DNA of 64,000 nt from Leptospira venezuelensis (GCF_002150035.1 NZ_NETS01000010.1:1075070-1139069); one strand, 5' to 3'; shown: positions 49,296 to 61,063, counted from the stretch's first letter. Numbers and translations are program-made. Notes: a model not told the origin generated them from the sequence alone.

Positions 49296-51172
49296 AGGAA
49301 TTCAGGTCGGATTTACTCGAAAAAAATTTGGCCTCACTTCGCAGCTTCGCGCCGGAAGCCTCAGAAAGAATTGGATCTTCCCAGATCAATTTCGAGATCG
49401 TTCCTACAAAAACAGAAGATCCTAGTTTAAAGATCGATAATATTCTTTTGCACAGTTCTATGGATCCTCGTAAAGAAGCAGAAAGGCAGCTTGCAGATCT
49501 AAAAAAAGGAGATGAAGAAAGAGCATTTCTATTTTTCGGTGCAGGTCTCGGTTATTCCATACAATATGCATTAGGATTTGATAAAATAATTTGCGTGTGG
49601 ATGGAACCTTTCCCAGAAATTATTAAGGCAGCGTTTTCACTTTTTGATTTTTCCCCTATGATACTATCAGGGAAGTTAAGGATATTCCTTCCACCATATG
49701 AAGAATCTGCATTTTACGAAGGTTTTAAAGGGATTTCCGGCTATCCTGTAAGTTTTATTCCTCATAGAGGAAGTCTACAATGGAAAAAAGAAGAATACCA
49801 AGAACTTCGGTTTTTGGCAGAGACTTTCTTTCATAAGAAAGATGTAAATACTGCAACATTAACTAGATTTGAAAAAGTCTGGACCGGCAATTTTATCAGA
49901 AACCTTCCTGAGCTTGTAGATATGCAGCCCATAAAGGAATTATTCGGTTTATGTAAATCTAAAGTGGATGTAGTTGTTTGTGGGGCGGGACCTTCTCTTT
50001 ATCTTTCCTTACAAGAACTGAAAGAATATAGAGAAAACTTTATATTGATCGCAGTAGACACTGCACTTCTTATTCTACAAAAATCGGGGATAGATCCGGA
50101 CCTTGTGTTTAGTGTTGACCCCCAGCCTTTAAATTCAAAATATTTAGAAGGTTATTCTGGAAAGGCAAAGTTTATATTTGATCCAACTACTTCGTATCAT
50201 TCATTAAGAATGCCTTATATAGGAAAAAATCACTTTCTGACTTCTTCTCCTTTTCCTTGGATCAAACTTTTGGAGAATGCTTCTGAGAACGGATTAGGGG
50301 CAGTGGATTTTGGCGGCTCCGTTTCTACAAATGCTGCCAGTTTAGCGGAAAAGATGGATGCAAGATCCATTTTACTTTTGGGGCAGGATCTTTCCTTTCC
50401 GGGTTCACAGGCTCATTGTAAGGGTGCGATCTTAGAAGAAAGATTGAACTTTCTAGAATCCAGGACTCAAAGAAGGGAACATCATAATTATAAACAAATG
50501 ACTGCTTTGCCGCCAAAGTGGATCGAATCTGCAGAAGGAAAAAAACTCAGGACGAACGAAAAACTTCTAATTTTCAAAAAATGGTTCGAAGAAAGACAAA
50601 AAGACCGTCCTTGGGCCAATCTTGGAAAAGACGGAGCGAAATTAGAAGGGATCAGGAATATTACGTTTAAAGAATGGTTTAAACAAAATCTTCCGAATAC
50701 AAAAGAGGTTTCTGGGATTAAAGAGAAGATCCAGTCACTTCTATCTTCTAAAATCAACGGAAAAAAAGTATCTGCAGAATTGAATAAGATCCGCAACGAG
50801 CTAAAAGAATTCGGAATACAAGTCTCTACGGGAGAAATTATTTCCGAAAAAATATACAGCCTCATCCAAAATGGAGAGAAGGACAAAGAATCAATTCGAA
50901 AGGCGCTACATGAGATTTCTGTAATAGACGATCGCATAAGTTCTAAAAAAGGACTCACTGAATTCTTAGGGATCAGCTTACAAAGAGTGATCTTGGCAAT
51001 CACAGAAGGATATGATACGGAACTCACATTAGAAGAAAAGAAGAACGATAGACTTGCAGTCGCGAAAAAGAGCCTTCTTCTTTATTCTGGATTGAAAAAG
51101 AGTGCAGAAATGAACATTGGTTTACTCAATAGATCCATAATGCGATTTTCTTCTGACAAAATTTCCGATTAA
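49292..51172 (+). CDS. Large DUF115-domain protein (MptE-like / motility-accessory-factor-like)
   Basis: [17 protein letters not shown]...[11 protein letters not shown] resembles the DUF115 core. It overlaps the PBP stop by 4 nt. Confidence 0.5.
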
Positions 51173-51303
51173 CAAGCGTTCATTTTTTTTAAATTCAATT
51201 TTTTCCTCTCTCCCCTTGACATTCTCTCTCTTTTGTAGATAATTTGGCCCCAAAGTATATAAGGGGTTCCGCTTGGGATCGTTTGTATATTAAAAATATA
51301 TAA

Positions 51304-52527
51304 TTGAAGAGAATTAGTATGTATAGGGATTTTTTCCGATTGAAAGTCGGCGTTTTTGCGCTGTTATTGTGTTTTAATCTTTTGTTATTTAACTGCAAAA
51401 AGGAAGAAGCAGATTCGATGGGGCAATTGGGAGCCATCCAAGCGGCACTTGCATGTAAGACCTTAAACGAATGTTTTGATTCGACTGCATCTCTATCCAA
51501 AAGCGGAGCTTCTTTCCAAGTTTTTAAAAAAGACGGAACAAGAGTGTACTTTAGAGAAAAAGGGGCATTGGGTGCTGATAAGGTCGGACCGATTTTTTCT
51601 GCATCAAAATTGGTAACTGCATCCGTAATCATGGCGTTCGTGAGCGGGACTTGTGGGTCTTCAGCAAATTCGATGAATTTAAATACTACAACCGGAAATA
51701 TCTTAGGTTGGACGGGAGTAAAAGGAACTATAACCTTAAGGCAACTAATGTCTTTCACTTCAGGATTATATTCGGATAATAGTTCCGATGAAATGGGTAG
51801 TTGTGTTTTTACTCTACCTAACGGTGCAAGTTCTGGAGATAAAAATTTATGTACGGATTTTATCCGAGACAATACACAAACTACTAAACAGCCAGGAGAA
51901 GAATTCTACTATAATTCTTATCATATGGCCGTGGCTCAAAGAATGGCGGAAATAGATTCAGGAAAAAATTGGCAGGACCTTTTTGAAGATTGTATTGCTT
52001 CTCCTTTAAGTATTACCGTGGATCCAGGAACAGGAAACGGTATCTGGTATGCTGACATTTCTAATAAGAGCGGAGATGGAAGTTTAGCGGGAGCTTATGG
52101 GTTATATCTGACTGCAAACGATTATGCGAAGATCATGCATATGCTTGCGAATGAAGGGAATTCAGGCGCGATTATATCTGCTTCAAATGTGAATGAAATT
52201 TTTAAAGATCAATATGAAGAGGATACTAAGATCAAATATTCACAGTTCGCTTTGTTCGGATATTATTGGCATTATGGATTAGGAAATTGGAGATTTTGTT
52301 CTCAGCCCAATGATTCGACTGATTGCGATCAGGACGTAAATAATCACAGTTTTGGAGCTAATGGATTCTATCCTTGGATAGATCGAAATAAAGAGTATTA
52401 TGCTGTTTTTGGAGTGAACGAATTTAATTCGAATCCATTTAATATCATCAGTATCCTACAACCGAACTCGGCAGCATTGTTTTTCGGACAAGATGCAAAG
52501 AAATATATTCCAGCTCTTTTGGAATAA
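51304..52527 (+). CDS. Serine hydrolase of the beta-lactamase/transpeptidase-like superfamily (class C-type), lipoprotein
   Basis: Lipobox LLLFNC. SxxK motif FSASKLV. Confidence 0.7.
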   Translation: MKRISMYRDFFRLKVGVFALLLCFNLLLFNCKKEEADSMGQLGAIQAALACKTLNECFDSTASLSKSGASFQVFKKDGTRVYFREKGALGADKVGPIFSASKLVTASVIMAFVSGTCGSSANSMNLNTTTGNILGWTGVKGTITLRQLMSFTSGLYSDNSSDEMGSCVFTLPNGASSGDKNLCTDFIRDNTQTTKQPGEEFYYNSYHMAVAQRMAEIDSGKNWQDLFEDCIASPLSITVDPGTGNGIWYADISNKSGDGSLAGAYGLYLTANDYAKIMHMLANEGNSGAIISASNVNEIFKDQYEEDTKIKYSQFALFGYYWHYGLGNWRFCSQPNDSTDCDQDVNNHSFGANGFYPWIDRNKEYYAVFGVNEFNSNPFNIISILQPNSAALFFGQDAKKYIPALLE

Positions 52528-52745
52528 AAAATTTTGAGAATGGCTCCGTGAAACATCGGAGTTTTAAAAAGTTGAAAAATTTTCATTCTTTAGAGCTATC
52601 ATATGTGTATAACCTGTAAATAACCCCGCTCGAATACACTTTGCTCAGCAAATTTTATATAAATCTCGGTAAAATCCTGCCATATGGCGTCTCATTTCGG
52701 AAATAATGTAAAAATTCGCCTTTGAAACTTTTTTTCATTTTTTAG

Positions 52746-52791
52746 TTGACTCAATTTGTGCTACGCACTACAAATGGATTGTGCGCCGCAC
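52746..52791 (+). promoter_or_regulatory. Sigma70-like promoter with two GTGC-N3-GCAC palindromic operators (phasin-like gene 1)
   Basis: TTGACT-17nt-TACAAA. GTGCtacGCAC lies inside the spacer (52758-52768) and GTGCgccGCAC lies 6 nt past the -10 (52781-52791). Confidence 0.4.
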
Positions 52792-52814
52792 AACGGTGTG
52801 CCAAGGAGCTAAAA

Positions 52815-53195
52815 ATGGAAAAACAAATTCTAGATGTACTGAACGCAGGTCTTGGTTTGGTTAAAAGTGGACAAGAAGGTCTGGATAAAGCGAAAGCAGA
52901 ATTTACTAAGAGTTTTCAAGAACTCGCAGCTAAAGGCGCTTCCGACAATTCAGAAGCATCTGTTCGTGTTCGTGAGTTCGTAGACAAATTCTTAAACGAA
53001 GCAAAAGAATTATCTACTGCTGCTACTAAAACCTACGAAGATTCTCGCGCTAAGGCTCTTGAAGTTTATAACCAGATTGCAGAAGAAGCTAAGAAATTAG
53101 TTCCTGCTGAACAAATCGAAGCTATCAAGGCAAAATTTAGCGAAGTTACGGAGACAGTTAAAAAAACCGCTGCTCCAACTAAAAAAACTGCTTAA
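52815..53195 (+). CDS. Phasin-family (PHA-granule-associated-protein-like) alpha-helical protein, paralog 1. The start is at MEKQIL.
   Basis: [22 protein letters not shown] resembles the phasin (TIGR01837-type) N-terminus. An AAGGAG Shine-Dalgarno sequence lies 7 nt upstream. The track ORF begins upstream in the leader. Confidence 0.55.
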   Translation: MEKQILDVLNAGLGLVKSGQEGLDKAKAEFTKSFQELAAKGASDNSEASVRVREFVDKFLNEAKELSTAATKTYEDSRAKALEVYNQIAEEAKKLVPAEQIEAIKAKFSEVTETVKKTAAPTKKTA

Positions 53196-53219
53196 TATAA
53201 GCCTTTTGAACCTCCATAT

Positions 53220-53251
53220 CGGCGGGGGATTCCTCCCGCCGAAAATTTTTT
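53220..53251 (+). terminator. Rho-independent terminator
   Basis: CGGCGGGGGattcCTCCCGCCGaaaatttttt. Confidence 0.65.
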
Positions 53252-53266
53252 CCTCTTCTCTCAGTT

Positions 53267-53767
53267 TTGAATCCGATTAAGTTCCTAATGACTAAAATTA
53301 CATCAGTATATGTAATTCTCTTTCTCCTTTTCATTGTAGATTGCCGCATGAGTGGTTCCGGCGAAGAAGAAAGAAGGTTTATACATTCTTTTCGGAAAGA
53401 AGTGTATCTCGGAAATGCATTAAACGCGGAAAAAATGATCTGCGAACATGTGCTTTTCAGCCCTGAGCGCAAGAAAGTAGAAAAAATGTTTTCTCGCATA
53501 AACCAAGTTGGCGCAAGGGCGAACATTGTACACGAAAGTACAACGTGGAAGTTTTCGGAATTTAACGGAATCGATATTAACTTTTTAGTATTGGATGCGG
53601 TTCGAAGAAAGAAAGACTATTATAGAGAGCAAGTTATTGCAGGTAAGTTGGAAGGAAAACTTTGCATTTTTGGCTATACCATGTATAAAGATAATAATTT
53701 AAAAAAGGGCCTAGGAGAAATGAAAGATAGTATGGGGCAACCTTTTGACATTGAGTTTGAAGAATAA
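53267..53767 (+). CDS. Lipoprotein, hypothetical
   Basis: Signal peptide plus lipobox FIVDC. Confidence 0.45.
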   Translation: MNPIKFLMTKITSVYVILFLLFIVDCRMSGSGEEERRFIHSFRKEVYLGNALNAEKMICEHVLFSPERKKVEKMFSRINQVGARANIVHESTTWKFSEFNGIDINFLVLDAVRRKKDYYREQVIAGKLEGKLCIFGYTMYKDNNLKKGLGEMKDSMGQPFDIEFEE

Positions 53768-53782
53768 AAAGAAGGTATATTC

Positions 53783-55003
53783 CTACATACCTTTATAAAC
53801 CTGAAATAATCTCCTAATTCCTTCTTCTGTTTCTTCCTCAGATGCTTTTGAAAAATTCCATCTTAAATGATTTCTTTCCGGCTTACCAACGAAGAAGGAA
53901 GATCCTGGAACCGCTGCCAGCCCCGCCTCCAAACATTTTTGGAAAAGGAGATCGGTATTGATCTCTCGTGGGAATTCCAACCAATAGAATAGCCCACCCT
54001 TAGAAATTTGTAATGGAATCGAGTCTCCAAAATTATTTTTAAAACAATCAAACGTATGATTTGCTTTCTTGTGATAAACACTTCGGATCAAGGAAAGATG
54101 TTCTTCGTATTTTGGAGAAGATACAAATCCGTATACTAATTCCTGATTCAAAGTTGGAGAATGTAAATCCATCGATTGTTTTTGTACAATCAGATCTTTT
54201 AGGATCTTTTTTGGTGCCTTGATCCATCCTACTCGCAGTGCAGGTGCAAGTGTTTTGGAGAATGTTCCGATAGAGATGGTGTGTTCCGGACCTAACTCAC
54301 ATAAAGAAACCGGAAGATCTTTTTCGAAGTATAATTCTCTGTAAGCAGTATCTTCTAAGATAGGAACTCCATTCTCCAGGAGTAATTTAGAAACAGAATT
54401 TCGAACCGCCAAAGAATAAGAATAGGAAGACGGATTTTGAAAATCAGGAATACAATAAAAGAATTTTGGCTTTTCGGAAGAAGTTTCCAGCGAGTACTTT
54501 AATTCTTCGATGTCCGGACCTTCTTCTGTATAATTAATCCCAATAAAAGAAGGTGCATAAGAAGAAAACACTTGGATTACGCCTAAATAGCTCGGCCTTT
54601 CTAAGAGGATCGGTGAACCTTCTTCTATAAAGTATCTACTGAGTAGATCCAATGCCTGTTGAGATCCTGAGGTTAAAAGAATTTCATCTGCAGAAGAACC
54701 TGAGTAATATCGATCCGCAATCCAGGCGCGTAAGTCGGAATGTCCCTGTGTGTCTGCGTATTGAAATAGTTTTGGGCCTTTTTTGGAAATAGAAGTTTCG
54801 AAAATACTTTTTAGATCTTCAATTGGGAACAAAGAATCATCGGGAAGTCCGCCTGCGAATGAGATCATTCCAGGTGTATCGATCACCTTTAAAATATCTC
54901 TCGTCACCGATGCAGGAGTTCTTGCAGTCCTTGCAGAAGGTCTGAAAATTTCGGATCTATTTTCTAGAATTAACTTGCCCATCTTCTTATTTCGTTTATA
55001 CAT
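53783..55003 (-). CDS. PLP-dependent aminotransferase, class I/II
   Basis: PLP-lysine context SFSKTLAPALRVGW. Confidence 0.75.
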   Translation of the reverse strand: MYKRNKKMGKLILENRSEIFRPSARTARTPASVTRDILKVIDTPGMISFAGGLPDDSLFPIEDLKSIFETSISKKGPKLFQYADTQGHSDLRAWIADRYYSGSSADEILLTSGSQQALDLLSRYFIEEGSPILLERPSYLGVIQVFSSYAPSFIGINYTEEGPDIEELKYSLETSSEKPKFFYCIPDFQNPSSYSYSLAVRNSVSKLLLENGVPILEDTAYRELYFEKDLPVSLCELGPEHTISIGTFSKTLAPALRVGWIKAPKKILKDLIVQKQSMDLHSPTLNQELVYGFVSSPKYEEHLSLIRSVYHKKANHTFDCFKNNFGDSIPLQISKGGLFYWLEFPREINTDLLFQKCLEAGLAAVPGSSFFVGKPERNHLRWNFSKASEEETEEGIRRLFQVYKGM

Positions 55004-55041
55004 TAAATTGAGATAACCATACAGATACAGAAACTGTTTTT

Positions 55042-56466
55042 ATGACCAATACAGATCGACTCATTACTAAGTATTCTAAGATCGCAAATTCTTTGATAGG
55101 AAGGATAGAATCTGGGGAATTTCCTCCTGGTTCCAAATTACCATCTCTTAGAAAGATTTGTTTATTCGAAGAATGTAATCTTTCTACTGCTGTGGAGGCT
55201 TTTGGTATTCTTCAAGAAAGAGGCTTTATTAGCGGGAGGGAAAGGTCCGGTTATTTCGTCCTTCCTCGACCTGAACTGTATCCGAAATTCAAATTGGAAA
55301 AACCTGTAAGAGTTCCAAATCCATCCGTTCCGGAGGAGGTGAGTTCTCTTATGTCAGAACTTGCCGATCCAGGATTTATTCCTTTTGGAGCAGCAGTTCC
55401 TGATCCTCAGTTTTTACCCTATTCTTCTTTGCAAAAAGCATATAAGAAATCCCTAAAGGACTCTCAGGTTTATAAATATTCGGATGCAGCTGGAATTTTG
55501 GAACTTAGGAAAAAGATCGCAATTCGTTCTTCCGGTAAGGAAAGAAGGATCCATCCCGATGAAGTGTTCATTACTTTGGGTTGTTCAGAAGCGGCATTCT
55601 TAGCCTTGAGTCTTTCCTTAAAACCTGGTGATAAGGTCGCAGTAGAGAGTCCTCTTCATTTTGTTTTGTATCAAATTCTTTCTGAATTAAAATTAAAAGC
55701 GATCGAGATACCAACGGATCCTTTTACTGGTTTGGATCTTCAATCTTATATTTCCGTAATAAAGAAAGAATCTCCTAAGTATTTGATCACCGTTCCAACT
55801 TTTTCGAACCCAACTGGAAGTCTTATGCCTCTGGAGTCTAAAAAGGAACTTCTCAAAGTTTCCTCTAAGTATGGTGTAAAAATTCTTGAGGACGATATTT
55901 ATGGCGACTTGCAGCATAACGGAGAGATTCGTCCTTCTTCCCTTTTGTCTTTAGATATGGAAGGGATTGTGACTCATGTCTCTTCTCTTTCTAAATCCGT
56001 AAATCCGGGACTTAGGATTGGTTGGATGATCGGCGATAAGAACAAAGTGGAGAATGCAAAACGTCTTCGTTTAGCAGAATCAATCTCTTTGCCTGCCATT
56101 CCTCAACTTGCTTCTTCTTATTTTATGGGATCACTTGCTCATGAAAGACATTTGAGAGAATTTAGACGAAGGTTGGGCGGTTTGGTACTTTCTTATACGG
56201 ATTCTTTTTTGGAATATTTTCCGAAGGGAACCAAGATCGCTATTCCGAAAGGAGGTTTTCTTCTTTGGATAGAACTTCCTAAGGGAAAAGATTCTAGAAT
56301 TCTGAGATTTCAAGCCGCAAAGAAGAAGATTAGTTTAGTTCCAGGAAATCTTTTCTCTCTTTCCGGTAAGTATGTGAATAATTTCAGAATTAATGCAGGA
56401 GTACTGATGGGACCTAAGGTGATCTCTGCCATCCAGGCTCTCGGAAAAATTGCAAAAGAAATTTAG
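55042..56466 (+). CDS. MocR-family transcriptional regulator (GntR HTH plus aminotransferase-like domain)
   Basis: N-terminal HTH LPSLRKICLFEECNLSTAVEAFGILQERGFI. C-terminal SLSKSVNPGLRIGW. Confidence 0.8.
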   Translation: MTNTDRLITKYSKIANSLIGRIESGEFPPGSKLPSLRKICLFEECNLSTAVEAFGILQERGFISGRERSGYFVLPRPELYPKFKLEKPVRVPNPSVPEEVSSLMSELADPGFIPFGAAVPDPQFLPYSSLQKAYKKSLKDSQVYKYSDAAGILELRKKIAIRSSGKERRIHPDEVFITLGCSEAAFLALSLSLKPGDKVAVESPLHFVLYQILSELKLKAIEIPTDPFTGLDLQSYISVIKKESPKYLITVPTFSNPTGSLMPLESKKELLKVSSKYGVKILEDDIYGDLQHNGEIRPSSLLSLDMEGIVTHVSSLSKSVNPGLRIGWMIGDKNKVENAKRLRLAESISLPAIPQLASSYFMGSLAHERHLREFRRRLGGLVLSYTDSFLEYFPKGTKIAIPKGGFLLWIELPKGKDSRILRFQAAKKKISLVPGNLFSLSGKYVNNFRINAGVLMGPKVISAIQALGKIAKEI

Positions 56467-56469
56467 ATT

Positions 56470-57528
56470 GTGGGTCCGTACATGCTTCCTGTATTGTCCT
56501 TTGATAGCATGAATTTAGAAACAGAAATCCAACAACCTACCATTTTATGTGATCCTTCCGGTAAAGTGAATCGGAATGCGATCGGCTGGTCCAAAACTCC
56601 CTTACATAGATGTAATGTAAAAGGACATTGGCTTCGTAAGAAAAAATGGAATTACTGGTGTTTTTATGATCAAAACTTTTTGGCTTCCTTCACTGTTTCG
56701 GATATCGATTATGCGGGAGTGATCTTTTGTTATTGGTTGGATAGAAGGACTGGAGAGTTCCAAGAGGCAACTGTAATCACACCATTTGGAAAAGGCACTT
56801 TACTCGGACAAACTGTTTCCAGCACTGCTCGATACGAAGGAAAGGAAGGATTTTTAGATTTCCAAATCGATGAGAATGGAAATTACAAGATCAAGGTGGA
56901 TTTTCTTAAAGGAACTAACAAGTCCATACAAGCAGATCTTACATTAGAAGTCCCTAATCAATGGGAAAGTTTGAATGTTGTAGTTCCTTGGAATAAAAAT
57001 CGTTTTCAATTCACCCACAAATTATTCGGATTAGGAGCAAAAGGAAAAGTCACAACTGCTTCTAAATCATACGAATTCAATCCTAAGGATTCATTTGGAG
57101 TTCTAGATTATGGAAGGGGAGTGTGGCCTTATTTCAGCAAATGGAATTGGGCATCCATGTCTTATCGTCCAGGCAATAATGAAGTTTATGGAATGAATCT
57201 CGGTGGTGGTTGGACAGACGGAACTGGAACCACTGAAAATGCTCTTCTGATTAATGGTAGAATTTATAAAATTCCTTCCGTGATTGCTTTTGAGTTCGAT
57301 AAAAAAGATCCTAAAAAACCTTGGATGATCTATTCCAAGGAAAGTAAGGCAGTCGAGCTTGTATTTACTCCTGATTTTCACAGAAAGGCTTATTCCAATA
57401 TGGGATTAATTGCTTCTAAAGTAAATCAGATGATCGGAAGTTTTGACGGCGTATTCCGTATCGGCAAAAGTGAATTTAGGATTGAAAGTGGGCAAGGCTG
57501 GGCAGAGGATCATATCGCTCGCTGGTAG
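56470..57528 (+). CDS. DUF2804-like protein
   Basis: 352 aa, WNYWCF-containing, beta-rich. It follows mocR with a 3-nt gap. Confidence 0.5.
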   Translation: MGPYMLPVLSFDSMNLETEIQQPTILCDPSGKVNRNAIGWSKTPLHRCNVKGHWLRKKKWNYWCFYDQNFLASFTVSDIDYAGVIFCYWLDRRTGEFQEATVITPFGKGTLLGQTVSSTARYEGKEGFLDFQIDENGNYKIKVDFLKGTNKSIQADLTLEVPNQWESLNVVVPWNKNRFQFTHKLFGLGAKGKVTTASKSYEFNPKDSFGVLDYGRGVWPYFSKWNWASMSYRPGNNEVYGMNLGGGWTDGTGTTENALLINGRIYKIPSVIAFEFDKKDPKKPWMIYSKESKAVELVFTPDFHRKAYSNMGLIASKVNQMIGSFDGVFRIGKSEFRIESGQGWAEDHIARW

Positions 57529-57534
57529 GTCAGA

Positions 57535-58293
57535 ATGATTAAACTTTCTGAATATTCGACAGAACCGAACGAAGATCTTTCCAAAGAGAAAGCGGAAGAA
57601 CTTCGCCTGAAGGAATTGGAAAGGATAGAAGAACTGCAGATTCGCCTTTTTGCAGGTAAAAAGAAATCATTACTCATCATACTTCAGGGAGTGGATGCTT
57701 CGGGAAAAGACGGATCGGTCAAAAGACTATTTTCTGTTTTAAATCCTTTAGGCTGCACTTGCAAGGCATGGAAGGCTCCTACACAAGAAGAGTTGAGTCG
57801 TGACTTTCTTTGGAGAATCCATAAAGAACTTCCACAAAAAGGTTGGATCCAGATCTTCAATCGATCTCATTACGAGGATATTTTAGTTCCATACGTTTCC
57901 GAAAGTTTATCTAAAGATAAGTTGAAAGAACGAGTAGATTTCATAGATTCTTTTGAAGAATTTATCTATAAGGAAAATCATACTCATATCCTAAAATTTT
58001 TCTTACATATATCCCAAGAAGAGCAAATCAAAAGGATAGAAGAGAGATTATCCAATCCTGAAAAGAATTGGAAGTTTGATCCAAGCGACCTAGAGGCTCA
58101 TAAAAATTTTAAAAAATACCAGAACGCGTATGAATGGGTATTTTCTCATTCAAAAGATCGTTTTCCTTGGGTGATCGTTCCTTCTGACAAGAAATGGTAT
58201 AGGGACTATCTGATAGCAAAGTCAGTTCGTAAAGAATTGGAAGATATGGATCTTAAATATCCTAAGTTGGAAGTCCAACCAGGTAAGATCTGA
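57535..58293 (+). CDS. ppk2: Polyphosphate kinase 2 family (polyphosphate:nucleotide phosphotransferase)
   Basis: Walker A LQGVDASGKDGSV and the FNRSHYEDILV motif. Confidence 0.85.
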   Translation: MIKLSEYSTEPNEDLSKEKAEELRLKELERIEELQIRLFAGKKKSLLIILQGVDASGKDGSVKRLFSVLNPLGCTCKAWKAPTQEELSRDFLWRIHKELPQKGWIQIFNRSHYEDILVPYVSESLSKDKLKERVDFIDSFEEFIYKENHTHILKFFLHISQEEQIKRIEERLSNPEKNWKFDPSDLEAHKNFKKYQNAYEWVFSHSKDRFPWVIVPSDKKWYRDYLIAKSVRKELEDMDLKYPKLEVQPGKI

Positions 58294-58339
58294 CCTAGTT
58301 TTCTTTTTCATTTTTTTCTGAATTTTTGTAATTTAGGGG

Positions 58340-58385
58340 TTGACCTCTATAGTGCGGTGCAATATGAATGGATTGTGCGCTGCAC
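58340..58385 (+). promoter_or_regulatory. Sigma70-like promoter with GTGC-N3-GCAC operators (phasin-like gene 2)
   Basis: TTGACC-17nt-TATGAA. GTGCggtGCA lies in the spacer and GTGCgctGCAC lies 6 nt past the -10. The geometry is the same as at 52746-52791. Confidence 0.4.
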
Positions 58386-58414
58386 CAAAAGTGTGGCGGA
58401 AAAAGGAGAGAAAA

Positions 58415-58786
58415 ATGGAAAAACAACTGTTGGACATTCTTAATGCTGGAATCGGACTTTTGAAATCTGGACAAGAAGGATTAGACAAAGCGAAAGTGGA
58501 TTTGGAAAAAACCTACGGAGAATTAGTAGCTAAAGGTGCTGCAGACAATTCTGAAGGTTCTGTAAAAATTCGCGAATCTGTGGATAAACTTTTGAACGAA
58601 ATCAAAGAAGTTTCCACCGTTGCTGGTAAAAACTACGAAGAAACTCGTGGTAAAATCGTTGAGAAGTACAATCAAATCTCCGAAGAGATCAAAAAACGCG
58701 TTCCAGAAGGCCAATTAGAAGCAGTTAAAGCTAAATTGACCGAAGTAGCTGAAACAATCAAAGCTACTGCAAAAGGAAAAGCTTAA
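58415..58786 (+). CDS. Phasin-family alpha-helical protein, paralog 2. The start is at MEKQLL.
   Basis: [32 protein letters not shown]. It is ~55% identical to paralog 1. A GGAGAG Shine-Dalgarno sequence lies upstream. Confidence 0.55.
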
Positions 58787-58888
58787 TTTCCGACGAGCGG
58801 GCGAAGGGAAACCTCGCCTGCTAATTTCTTCCCTCCTCTCAGTTTCCACTGCTTGACATTTTCTTTTTTCAGGTGTCTTTGCTAAGGG

Positions 58889-59704
58889 ATGTTCTCCCGT
58901 TCAAAACTGCCCGCTCCGTTTCTTCTGATTTTAATTATTCTTCTGTGTATCATATCTTCCCAAGTTTCGTCCCAGCCTACGGAACCTTCTCCTGATAAAA
59001 CTATAGAACAAAAGCCAAGTCTTATGAATGGGCTACCTCCTGAAAAAACTCCAACTGGGCCTAGCCAAGCAGAACTTAGGGAGAAGTTCAAGAACCAGAT
59101 CGGTGGTTTTGCATTTGGGAGTTCAGAAAAATATTATTCTTTGCAGGTTGCGAGAATGTTAGATTCTCAATGGGCTATTGGGCTTAACGGTTATAGTAAT
59201 ACTTATGTGAATCGTTTTGATAATGATGCCGCATATTCTTATTATCTTCCCCCTCATGATTTTTACGGAAGATTGAGAAACCATCAAGAGAAGTATTGGG
59301 GAGGAGCTTTCTTTGTTCAAAGGTTCATAGCAGATTCTCCTTTTTTCGTTTCTCTTTGGTTAGGAAGAGAACATTACCAAAAGAATCAAACTGCTCTTTA
59401 TTGGGAATCCGCAGGCAATACATATCGTTTCGAAAAAGATTCTTATAGTTCGGGGCCAAGGAATTATGCGGGTTTCGGAGTTGGATTTAGATTCCAAGCT
59501 GGTTCTGGTTTATTTTTTGGTTGGGAAGGTGTTTGGAGTTGGTATGCTCCTTACAGTAATTCATTCTCTGTTTCAGATCTTTATTATTCGGATAGAACTG
59601 CAAGTATTGGAGATTTGCTATATAGAAGATACGCTTACCAGAATTCAGAAAGATTACCAGGCACTAGCTTCGGCTTAAATCTTTTCGTAGGCTGGGCCTT
59701 CTAA
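58889..59704 (+). CDS. Putative outer-membrane beta-barrel protein
   Basis: Signal peptide. Aromatic-rich alternating strands. C-terminal ...LNLFVGWAF with a terminal Phe. Confidence 0.45.
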   Translation: MFSRSKLPAPFLLILIILLCIISSQVSSQPTEPSPDKTIEQKPSLMNGLPPEKTPTGPSQAELREKFKNQIGGFAFGSSEKYYSLQVARMLDSQWAIGLNGYSNTYVNRFDNDAAYSYYLPPHDFYGRLRNHQEKYWGGAFFVQRFIADSPFFVSLWLGREHYQKNQTALYWESAGNTYRFEKDSYSSGPRNYAGFGVGFRFQAGSGLFFGWEGVWSWYAPYSNSFSVSDLYYSDRTASIGDLLYRRYAYQNSERLPGTSFGLNLFVGWAF

Positions 59705-60471
59705 TGAATTCGGATCTATTTCTTCTTCCTAAACCTTGGGTAATTGCTCATAGAGGAGACAGCGGAGAATATCCTGAAAACACAATGAGTTCGTTTCAAA
59801 ACGCCTGGGAGCTCAAGGCGGATTGGATAGAATTGGATATTACACATTCTGCTGATGCTAAGATAGTAGTTATTCATGATGATACATTGGACAGAACGAC
59901 AGATCAAAAAGGAGAAGTGAAACTTCTTCCATTTAATATGATCCGCAAAGCGGATGCAGGTTCTTGGAAAGACCCAAGGTTTAAAGGGGAGAAGGTGCCA
60001 GATCTTTGGGAAGTCTGGGATTATCTAAAGTCCAAAAATATCGGATTGAATGTGGAGATCAAATCAGGAGCTTATGAAGAGATTCCTATAGAAACTCCAA
60101 TTGAACAAGAGCTGATCGATTATACTAGGCAAAATTCGCTCTTTCATAAAACATTATTCTCTTCTTTTTGTTGGGACTCCTTGATACGTATTAGAGAATT
60201 ATCAACAGAGGCAAAGCTTGGCATCTTGATCGGAGACGAAACTTCTTCTTGGATGGAAGCATTAGAGCTTGGTTTTAGATTGAACGCATTCAGTTTGAAT
60301 CTTTCTGCCAGGGGTTTGGATAAAGAGACTGTTTCCAAAATCCAGATGGAAGGTTTTAAGGTTTTAGTTTACACTCTGAATACGGAAGAAGAGCTGAAGT
60401 CAGGAATAGATTTAGGAGTAGATGGGATCTTTACGAATTATCCTAAACGAATGAGATCTCTTATTACTTGA
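59704..60471 (+). CDS. glpQ: Glycerophosphodiester phosphodiesterase
   Basis: HRGDSGEYPENT and ELDITHSADAKIVVIHDDTLDRTT are GDPD motifs. Confidence 0.85.
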   Translation: MNSDLFLLPKPWVIAHRGDSGEYPENTMSSFQNAWELKADWIELDITHSADAKIVVIHDDTLDRTTDQKGEVKLLPFNMIRKADAGSWKDPRFKGEKVPDLWEVWDYLKSKNIGLNVEIKSGAYEEIPIETPIEQELIDYTRQNSLFHKTLFSSFCWDSLIRIRELSTEAKLGILIGDETSSWMEALELGFRLNAFSLNLSARGLDKETVSKIQMEGFKVLVYTLNTEEELKSGIDLGVDGIFTNYPKRMRSLIT

Positions 60472-61063
60472 TCTCTACTCTTGCAAATTGGTCCAGCTCT
60501 ACCTGCCAATTATCTATCATATTTTTTAAAACCGTTACAACCTTTTCAGACGGAACATCATAATTATCGGAGGCGAATGCGTCAGTCTCATTGAAGCCTG
60601 GTACGTTCTTTAGATCTTCTCCTTCTGCTCTGAATCTATAGATCTCAAATTCTTCTGCCCCTCTTGCTTCTCCGTTCTTTATGAAGAATGGTTTGATGAG
60701 GCTCATTCTATATTTTCCGAAACGAAAACTTTGTAAAGATTGTAGGAATTTATAAGTACCGAGAGCTAATTCCAATTTCATATGATCAGAATATTTTTCC
60801 GAACCTAAGAACGTAAGTGCAGACGTTCCTCCAAATCCTAAATAAACTTCGAATTTTGGTCCTTTCTCATCTTGAACTTTTACTAGATCAATTTCTTTCA
60901 ACCTTTCGCCAAATAATGCAAACGCTGCCATTTTGATCTTTTCTTCTTCGTTTAATTGTGCATCAGAAAGTATCGTTTTTACTTTTTCTTGGGGTGATTT
61001 AGAGCAGGAAGTTAATTGGAAGAAAGCTAGAGAAATTAATAAGATATGAACAGTTGTTTTCAT
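60464..61063 (-). CDS. Lipoprotein, hypothetical
   Basis: Signal plus lipobox FQLTSC. Confidence 0.5.
   Translation of the reverse strand: MKTTVHILLISLAFFQLTSCSKSPQEKVKTILSDAQLNEEEKIKMAAFALFGERLKEIDLVKVQDEKGPKFEVYLGFGGTSALTFLGSEKYSDHMKLELALGTYKFLQSLQSFRFGKYRMSLIKPFFIKNGEARGAEEFEIYRFRAEGEDLKNVPGFNETDAFASDNYDVPSEKVVTVLKNMIDNWQVELDQFARVEIK

Follow-up and report, generated by a model that had tools for sequence, protein, structure and literature searches.

A stretch of 64,000 nucleotides from Leptospira venezuelensis (NZ_NETS01000010.1:1075070-1139069; hereafter the window, with positions counted from its first letter) harbours two genes for phasin-related proteins, named here copy A and copy B, each preceded by a promoter with two palindromes which appear, from their sequence, to be operators of a PhaR-type repressor. 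In other bacteria, PhaR governs the proteins that coat storage granules, and Leptospira, a spirochete, is not known to form granules of this type. The best overall explanation, to which we give a probability of about three in four, is a circuit of the PhaR-phasin type, with two PhaR operators per promoter and phasin-related proteins as targets, in which copy A was gained by duplication in the intermediate (P2) clade of the genus. Literature searches on Leptospira combined with phasin, PhaR or polyhydroxyalkanoate (PHA) synthesis, with the UniProt identifier and with the palindrome returned nothing relevant, and no previous description seems to exist of the regulatory link, the operators or the regulon, while single components carry automated names. 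The novelty may thus lie in a variant of the PhaR-phasin system with a different target family, an unlinked phaR gene and a possible independence from PHA.

Paired palindromes in the promoters of phasin-related genes

The two open reading frames encode proteins of 126 and 123 residues that are 66% identical. A preliminary description of the window, made from its sequence, had placed both behind the same promoter layout, namely, TTGAC(T/C), 17 nt, TA(C/T)(A/G)AA, tggatt and a GTGC-N3-GCAC palindrome, with a second copy of the palindrome in the spacer, and its coordinates for these elements and for both genes proved exact (see the table below). The spacer between the -35 and -10 hexamers measures 17 nt in both copies, the extended sites read TTGTGC-N3-GCAC(A)A, and 23 bp separate the centres of box 1 (site 1, in the spacer) and box 2 (site 2, downstream of the -10 hexamer) within each promoter. 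Between copies A and B, the promoter core is better conserved than the coding DNA, and the exact occurrences of the 17-mer TGGATTGTGCGCNGCAC in the window are the two promoters. The pattern GTGCNNNGCAC has three matches in the 64 kb, all within the two promoters, against 0.06 expected, and TGCRNYGCASMA, with 0.12 expected, has four, since box 2 of either copy matches on both strands. A search for further boxes that allowed up to two mismatches and covered the window plus Leptospira flanks of about 700 kb gave chance-level non-palindromic matches only.

The palindromes resemble sites at which PhaR has been footprinted. In Bradyrhizobium diazoefficiens, DNase I footprints of PhaR cover TGCGACGCACAA, TGCGTCGCACAA and TGCGCTGCACAA, from which the consensus TGCRNYGCASMA is derived (PMC6201568). 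All 12 positions of the Leptospira palindrome fit this consensus, including the R-N-Y bias of its spacer, and an operator of the form TGCRNYGCASMA is found in the promoter of both copies, as box 2. Box 2 of copy B is one base off the footprinted phaP4 site TGCGCTGCACAA, and 12-mers identical to footprinted B. diazoefficiens sites are found in other Leptospira promoters.

A scan of species-representative genomes recovered 43 loci. A set of 43 promoters of the gene, orthologous or paralogous, was obtained from 36 Leptospira-type genomes representing the P1, P2, S1 and S2 clades and two related metagenome-assembled genomes (MAGs), and all of them keep both boxes, at a spacing of 22-24 bp; the conservation in related species on which the preliminary description had made its proposal depend is therefore present throughout this set. 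TGC and GCA served as alignment anchors, and conservation was counted at the flanking positions outside them. At site 2, the anchors are preceded by T (43 of 43), T (41) and G (43), and followed by C (43), A (36) and A (43), while the arms TTGTGC and GCA of site 1 are retained in every promoter. The central triplet is variable, with 17 different forms at site 1 and 12 at site 2, and at site 2 it conforms to R-N-Y in all 43 cases. A pattern in which the arms are fixed, the centre varies freely and nothing covaries is typical of recognition by a sequence-specific protein, not of an RNA stem.

The same data bear on the idea that the similarity of the two promoters is a leftover of recent duplication, devoid of regulatory meaning. 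The duplicated unit does begin about 50 nt ahead of the -35 hexamer and end just beyond the terminator; however, the boxes are intact although the coding regions have diverged to the extent given above, and they are kept genus-wide in species with a single copy, so that this reading is effectively refuted.

Other features of the upstream regions were noted during this comparison. In saprophyte promoters (L018-L033), a near-invariant leader, AAATAGGTGAAAACCAGGAGCTAAA, separates the start codon from box 2, and their -35 (TTTACA/CTTGNN) and -10 elements are weaker than those of pathogens. Leptospiraceae MAGs from outside the genus (L035, L036, L038-L040) are devoid of the PhaR boxes and share another conserved upstream element, TATATA(A/T)ATGAGTCAAC..TATAACTTTGGTCATATATTG.TAAATCTTTT, which suggests a different regulator in these lineages.

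The position of the boxes relative to the transcription start can be set from the Leptospira interrogans ortholog, LMANv2_450023 (LT962963.1 3444435-3444815, minus strand). A published differential RNA sequencing (dRNA-seq) study records its primary start site at 3444860, on the second T of the box 2 TTGTGC. TATAAA occupies -11 to -6 and is preceded, at a distance of 17 nt, by TTGACT; the start thus lies inside box 2, and box 1 between the -35 and -10 hexamers, so that the operators overlap the start site and the core promoter. By alignment, the +1 position would be T52780 in copy A and T58374 in copy B, placing site 1 at about -24 to -10 and site 2 at -1 to +14. This agrees with the start that had been predicted near GGATTGTGC. 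At 30 C, coverage of LMANv2_450023 ranks about 17th among protein-coding genes, above lipL41, which indicates that the promoter is largely open in the standard fatty-acid medium. Two other readings of the promoter were dropped, namely, a sigma-54 element at TGGATT...GC, since the GG is not conserved in saprophytes, and a MerR-type activator, given the 17-nt spacer.

As box 2 lies within the transcript (+1 to +14), the element might act mainly as RNA, through a hairpin in the 5' leader affecting stability or translation. Indeed, the leader of copy A (52780-52801 in the window, and the equivalents in L001-L006) can fold into UGCNNNG-CACAA-CNNNGYR, a stem of 8 bp using the left half of box 2, and two of its pairs covary among seven P2 sequences. 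However, box 1 has the same sequence yet lies upstream of the mapped start, the arms are invariant rather than covarying, and the leader hairpin was not seen on inspection of the P1 or S clades. A scan of positions 50000-61000 against Rfam at E <= 1 found no RNA family, and leader folding gave z-scores of -0.8 and -2.6. We consider an RNA-based function very unlikely; the hairpin of copy A may be a 5'-terminal stabilising stem.

The association of such box pairs with phasin genes extends beyond Leptospira. An exact-pattern scan of metagenome contigs with TTGTGCNNNGCA-N10-12-TTGTGCNNNGCAC returned at least 120 loci (L044-L163), and among the matches listed, 27 are tandem repeats and 93 are not. 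A phasin-type gene lies within 2 kb at 31 of the 93 non-tandem loci listed, 20 being Phasin_2-like and 11 belonging to the phasin-related family, and four of the 20 Phasin_2 loci listed also contain phaR. The Phasin_2 assignment was above the Pfam threshold in the five proteobacterial proteins tested (5/5, 43-86 bits), and the regulator at one locus (L046) combines PF07879 and PF05233. At another (L072), the promoter has the same layout as those of the window, with TTGATT, 17 nt containing a box, TATAAT, 5 nt and TTGTGCAAAGCACAA. Two members of the phasin-related family in contigs of 53-56% GC are likewise located behind paired boxes.

With regard to the candidate repressor, L. interrogans LMANv2_20040 is annotated as a putative PhaR of 186 residues assigned to both COG5394 and COG3937 (phasin) (PMC5243855, supplementary tables 3 and 5), and it is expressed from its own start site (PMC5243855, supplement). 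The double assignment hints at a putative repressor with a phasin-like C-terminal part. A search with a proteobacterial PhaR as query gave 7,992 matches, and the best 120 of them, all close to the query, include no Leptospira name. The identification of the palindromes as PhaR boxes is based on three independent lines, namely, the match to the footprint consensus, the metagenome association and the annotated L. interrogans PhaR; together with the genus-wide conservation, these points favour the PhaR-like repressor operators put forward in the preliminary description.

The palindromes could nonetheless be operators of another regulator, for example a dimer of the GntR, TetR or Rrf2 type, their likeness to PhaR sites being fortuitous. 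The 6-3-6 form with its GT...AC core is generic among dimeric regulators, the Leptospira PhaR is known from genome annotation, and no regulator gene adjoining the phasin-related gene is conserved in any clade, the neighbouring MocR gene being confined to P2. Set against this are the fit of 12/12 consensus positions, including R-N-Y, the 12-mers identical to footprinted sites, the same box pair upstream of Phasin_2 genes beside phaR in Proteobacteria, and the PhaR homolog annotated in L. interrogans, all of which make a non-PhaR regulator improbable, if less so than the RNA-based alternative.

The phasin-related proteins and the proposed circuit

Both proteins match the NCBIfam family NF047773 ('phasin-related domain', phas_rel_Lepto) over residues 2-67, with 85.1 bits for copy A and 80.8 bits for copy B (cutoff 35). 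Both are small, entirely helical and strongly amphipathic, with a helical hydrophobic moment of 1.11-1.13 compared with 0.65 +/- 0.1 for shuffled sequence, about 4.5 standard deviations above, and the phasin-like character attributed to them earlier is in keeping with these properties. Five helices are predicted by AlphaFold2 in runs with 17 and 55 sequences, at low confidence (predicted local distance difference test scores, pLDDT, of 59 and 68), and the description as small amphipathic alpha-helical proteins is subject to that confidence. The family is small, with 90 cluster representatives at E <= 0.001 among 1.84 billion proteins, the few named ones being from Leptospirales. Weak matches made by remote relatives concern Apolipoprotein in 23 of 55 cases and Phasin PF05597 in 14 of 55 (E of 1.7e-5 or weaker), and also ApoLp-III and YtxH; a search of the PDB sequences with the family profile gave nothing below E = 0.15.

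Compared with the granule proteins of PF05597, TIGR01837 and COG3937, the Leptospira proteins show weak co-linear similarity and a similar size and helicity, but all scores are well short of the curated thresholds, and similarity to the repeats of apolipoproteins A1, A4 and E is at least as frequent. With apolipoproteins, apolipophorin III and YtxH, they share helical repeats of about 20 residues, short turns, a strong hydrophobic moment and balanced charge, but no significant match in sequence or fold. The phasin similarity points to a general resemblance of amphipathic helices rather than to demonstrated homology, and the comparison with apolipoproteins suggests a mode of action, reversible coating of a hydrophobic surface, and not family membership. 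The proteins would then work like a phasin or an exchangeable apolipoprotein. The legacy database name 'chemotaxis protein' (COG0840) was rejected, as the PF00015 MCP signalling domain gave no match and the protein has only 123-126 residues. In other respects, the N-terminus of the phasin-related proteins weakly resembles (19-22 bits) an 80-residue family, NCBIfam NF047664 'LIMLP_16025 family'. A table of non-coding RNAs up-regulated upon peroxide exposure flags L. interrogans LIMLP_16025, which flanks one of these RNAs, as differentially expressed (PMC7567364).

In the circuit that we propose, each gene forms a single-gene transcription unit composed of a sigma-70-type promoter, a leader of 35-41 nt, a Shine-Dalgarno sequence, a coding sequence of about 125 codons and an intrinsic terminator. 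Its promoter carries two copies of the putative operator (TTG)TGC-RNY-GCA(CAA), one between the -35 and -10 hexamers and one across the start site, whose centre distance of 23 bp, about two helical turns, places both boxes on the same face of the DNA. The Leptospira PhaR homolog would bind both boxes and block RNA polymerase; a protein at either site would obstruct the polymerase, hence the reading as repression. A hydrophobic surface, which in the classical system is that of polyhydroxybutyrate granules, would draw PhaR off the DNA, whereupon the promoter would fire; the phasin-like protein would then coat this surface and displace PhaR, which would repress the promoter again. This scheme is modelled on the circuit of Ralstonia eutropha and B. 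diazoefficiens (summarised in PMC6201568), so that the binding of PhaR at the boxes, the direction of regulation and the coated surface are drawn from analogy.

The likeness to the PhaR-PhaP circuit of R. eutropha, Paracoccus denitrificans and B. diazoefficiens includes the operator sequence TGCRNYGCASMA, its occurrence in pairs, as in front of B. diazoefficiens phaP1, the overlap of the operators with the core promoter, a small, abundant, amphipathic helical target, and a PhaR homolog annotated in the genus. However, the Leptospira targets belong to a family of their own, NF047773, found mainly in Leptospirales, phaR does not lie beside them, and the annotated PhaR has the additional COG3937 assignment. 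Furthermore, a keyword search of the gene table of L. interrogans L495, the one species covered, found no phaC, phbC, 'alkanoate' synthase or depolymerase.

Several observations weigh against the proposed circuit. The scores of the two proteins with established phasin families are sub-threshold, namely, 8.7 and 10.7 bits for Pfam Phasin PF05597 (cutoff 28.8) and, for copy B only, 16.1 bits (E = 0.009) for TIGR01837 PHA_granule_1 (cutoff 94.7), and Phasin_2 (PF09361), a model that does recover the proteobacterial phasins located behind the boxes, gave no match even at E <= 10; formal membership of Phasin_2 or TIGR01837, which the preliminary description had envisaged, is thus unsupported. A Foldseek search against the PDB gave nothing below E = 1, and with this and the low pLDDT, no claim is based on the fold. 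The Leptospira PhaR is taken from the published annotation of L. interrogans, a species other than that of the window, and a local PhaR hidden Markov model found no PhaR gene in the window or in the flanks of the Leptospira loci. Since the L. interrogans table names neither a PHA synthase nor a depolymerase, the classical PhaR ligand may be absent. The boxes are missing at seven remoter loci of the gene in Leptospiraceae- or Leptospirales-type MAGs, one of which bears just the label Spirochaetota. Lastly, expression of the ortholog in ordinary culture is very high, and repression, if any, would be largely relieved there.

Leptospira live on long-chain fatty acids. It is conceivable, although we regard it as the less probable outcome and put it forward tentatively, that the circuit is independent of PHA, PhaR sensing another hydrophobic body that the abundant phasin-related proteins coat, with neutral-lipid or fatty-acid droplets or stressed membrane as candidates. 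If true, a major zoonotic pathogen would be using the PhaR switch independently of PHA, and the question arises of what a PhaR-phasin-type module senses and coats in fatty-acid-feeding bacteria without an annotated PHA synthase. The PhaR-phasin-type circuit as such would imply that the DNA specificity of PhaR is conserved from Alphaproteobacteria to spirochetes, and it provides a testable assignment (operator, start site and candidate repressor) for one of the most highly transcribed Leptospira genes of unknown function.

Duplication in the P2 clade and the intervening gene cluster

The proteins of the window are 98% identical to those of Leptospira haakeii, which places the organism in the P2 clade. 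Copy B shares 72-75% identity with the orthologs of P1 species, 69-71% with those of saprophytes (S clade) and 92-93% with the copy B orthologs of two other P2 species. Copy A is confined to P2 and evolves faster, its identity being 77-82% among P2 sequences and 50-62% in all other comparisons. The single gene of P1 species has the same outer neighbours as the pair in the window, with PBP, MptE-like and beta-lactamase-like genes upstream and, on the downstream side, an outer-membrane-like protein and GlpQ. A P2-specific insertion of about 5.6 kb is therefore made up of copy A together with the aminotransferase-MocR-DUF2804-PPK2 genes. The pair with its intervening cluster is present only in L001-L006, of which Leptospira perolatii (L005) has both copies without DUF2804 and PPK2, and the gene has entirely different neighbours in saprophytes. 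Copy B would accordingly be the ancestral, genus-wide gene, and copy A the product of a duplication of the whole unit in P2, operators included, the aminotransferase-MocR-DUF2804-PPK2 genes having probably come to lie between them by insertion, with no functional tie to either.

In the preliminary description, this neighbourhood had been taken as a link between the phasin-like pair and polyphosphate metabolism. The aminotransferase, the GntR/MocR regulator, DUF2804 and PPK2 were recovered with Pfam, whereas the gene described as a lipoprotein has no Pfam match. A single functional unit, in which the MocR-DUF2804-PPK2 genes would tie granule proteins to polyphosphate, could account for the adjacency of these genes, which is seen in the window as well as in five P2 species (L001-L004 and L006). 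However, the arrangement is confined to P2, it lacks DUF2804 and PPK2 in L. perolatii, pathogens and saprophytes have a single gene, with different neighbours in the latter, and no PhaR box precedes any gene of the cluster. Such a unit thus seems highly improbable: the clade-limited arrangement makes the polyphosphate link an accident of position in one clade, and a misleading inference is thereby removed.

Feature coordinates and further loci with paired boxes

Features of the two transcription units and of the DNA between them, in window coordinates. Both -35 hexamers, the copy B -10 hexamer and both ribosome-binding sites were read from the sequence.
Feature	Position	Strand	Remarks
Copy A -35 hexamer, TTGACT	52746..52751	+	TTGAC kept in P1/P2 orthologous promoters; L. 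interrogans equivalent 17 nt upstream of -10
Copy A putative PhaR box 1 (site 1), TTGTGCTACGCACTA, core GTGCTACGCAC at 52758-52768	52756..52770	+	inside -35/-10 spacer, about -24 to -10
Copy A -10 hexamer, TACAAA, then tggatt	52769..52774	+	positional counterpart of L. interrogans TATAAA
Copy A putative PhaR box 2 (site 2), TTGTGCGCCGCACAA, core GTGCGCCGCAC at 52781-52791	52779..52793	+	about -1 to +14; fits TGCRNYGCASMA on both strands
Copy A ribosome-binding site, AAGGAG	52803..52808	+	
Copy A coding sequence, 126 aa, phasin-related domain protein	52815..53195	+	P2-clade-specific, faster-evolving paralog
Copy A intrinsic terminator, 10-bp GC-rich stem and T run	53219..53252	+	-20.3 kcal/mol, z = -3.4
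Intervening cluster: 166-aa protein, aminotransferase (-), GntR/MocR regulator, DUF2804, PPK2	53267..58293	.	P2-clade-specific; Pfam matches; outside the proposed circuit
Copy B -35 hexamer, TTGACC	58340..58345	+	
Copy B putative PhaR box 1 (site 1), degenerate, TAGTGCGGTGCAATA, core GTGCGGTGCA at 58352-58361	58350..58364	+	in spacer
Copy B -10 hexamer, TATGAA, then tggatt	58363..58368	+	
Copy B putative PhaR box 2 (site 2), TTGTGCGCTGCACCA, core GTGCGCTGCAC at 58375-58385	58373..58387	+	fits TGCRNYGCASMA on both strands
Copy B ribosome-binding site, AAGGAG	58403..58408	+	
Copy B coding sequence, 123 aa, phasin-related domain protein	58415..58786	+	ortholog of the genus-wide single-copy gene
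Copy B terminator-like hairpin, then AAUUUCUU	58796..58830	+	-19.6 kcal/mol, z = -2.1

The metagenome contigs contain other genes behind paired boxes. A paralog of 87-88 residues (NF047773, 68-70 bits) follows paired PhaR boxes at L065:289-555 (-), L102, L117:1427-1693 (+) and L143:4365-4631 (+). It is divergent from mtnA, in Leptospira-like contigs of 38-43% GC, and L102 stems from the same assembly as L049, which bears the 125-residue gene. Since this paralog lies behind the same boxes, the regulon probably has at least two to three members per genome. In contigs of 55-58% GC (L055, L062:1067-1294 and L156), a protein of 75-87 residues with no Pfam match (MT.A.AQPL..E.ELTKAH..L.EADMLVTDV..LF...) is encoded 29-36 nt downstream of paired boxes, with a promoter of the TTGACA type, and may be an undescribed member of the proteobacterial PhaR regulon. 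Another PhaR target may be an uncharacterized protein of 148-162 residues, found downstream of paired boxes at L127:4845-5291 (-) and L128:4387-4875 (+), in contigs of 47-51% GC.

The 27 tandem-repeat loci (L066, L068, L070, L085, L123, L126, L132, L136 and others) consist of units of 22-24 bp, each with TTGTGCNNNGCAC, in contigs spanning 36-76% G+C, and look unrelated to PhaR promoters. Finally, at L047, L064 and L074, paired sites that are perfect palindromes, CTTGTGCCCGGCACAAG ... TTGTGCCCCGCACAAG, precede the gene of a conserved protein of 198 residues (MWNMPTKYKSIRDFTAY...), and may represent a replication- or plasmid-type element rather than a PhaR target.

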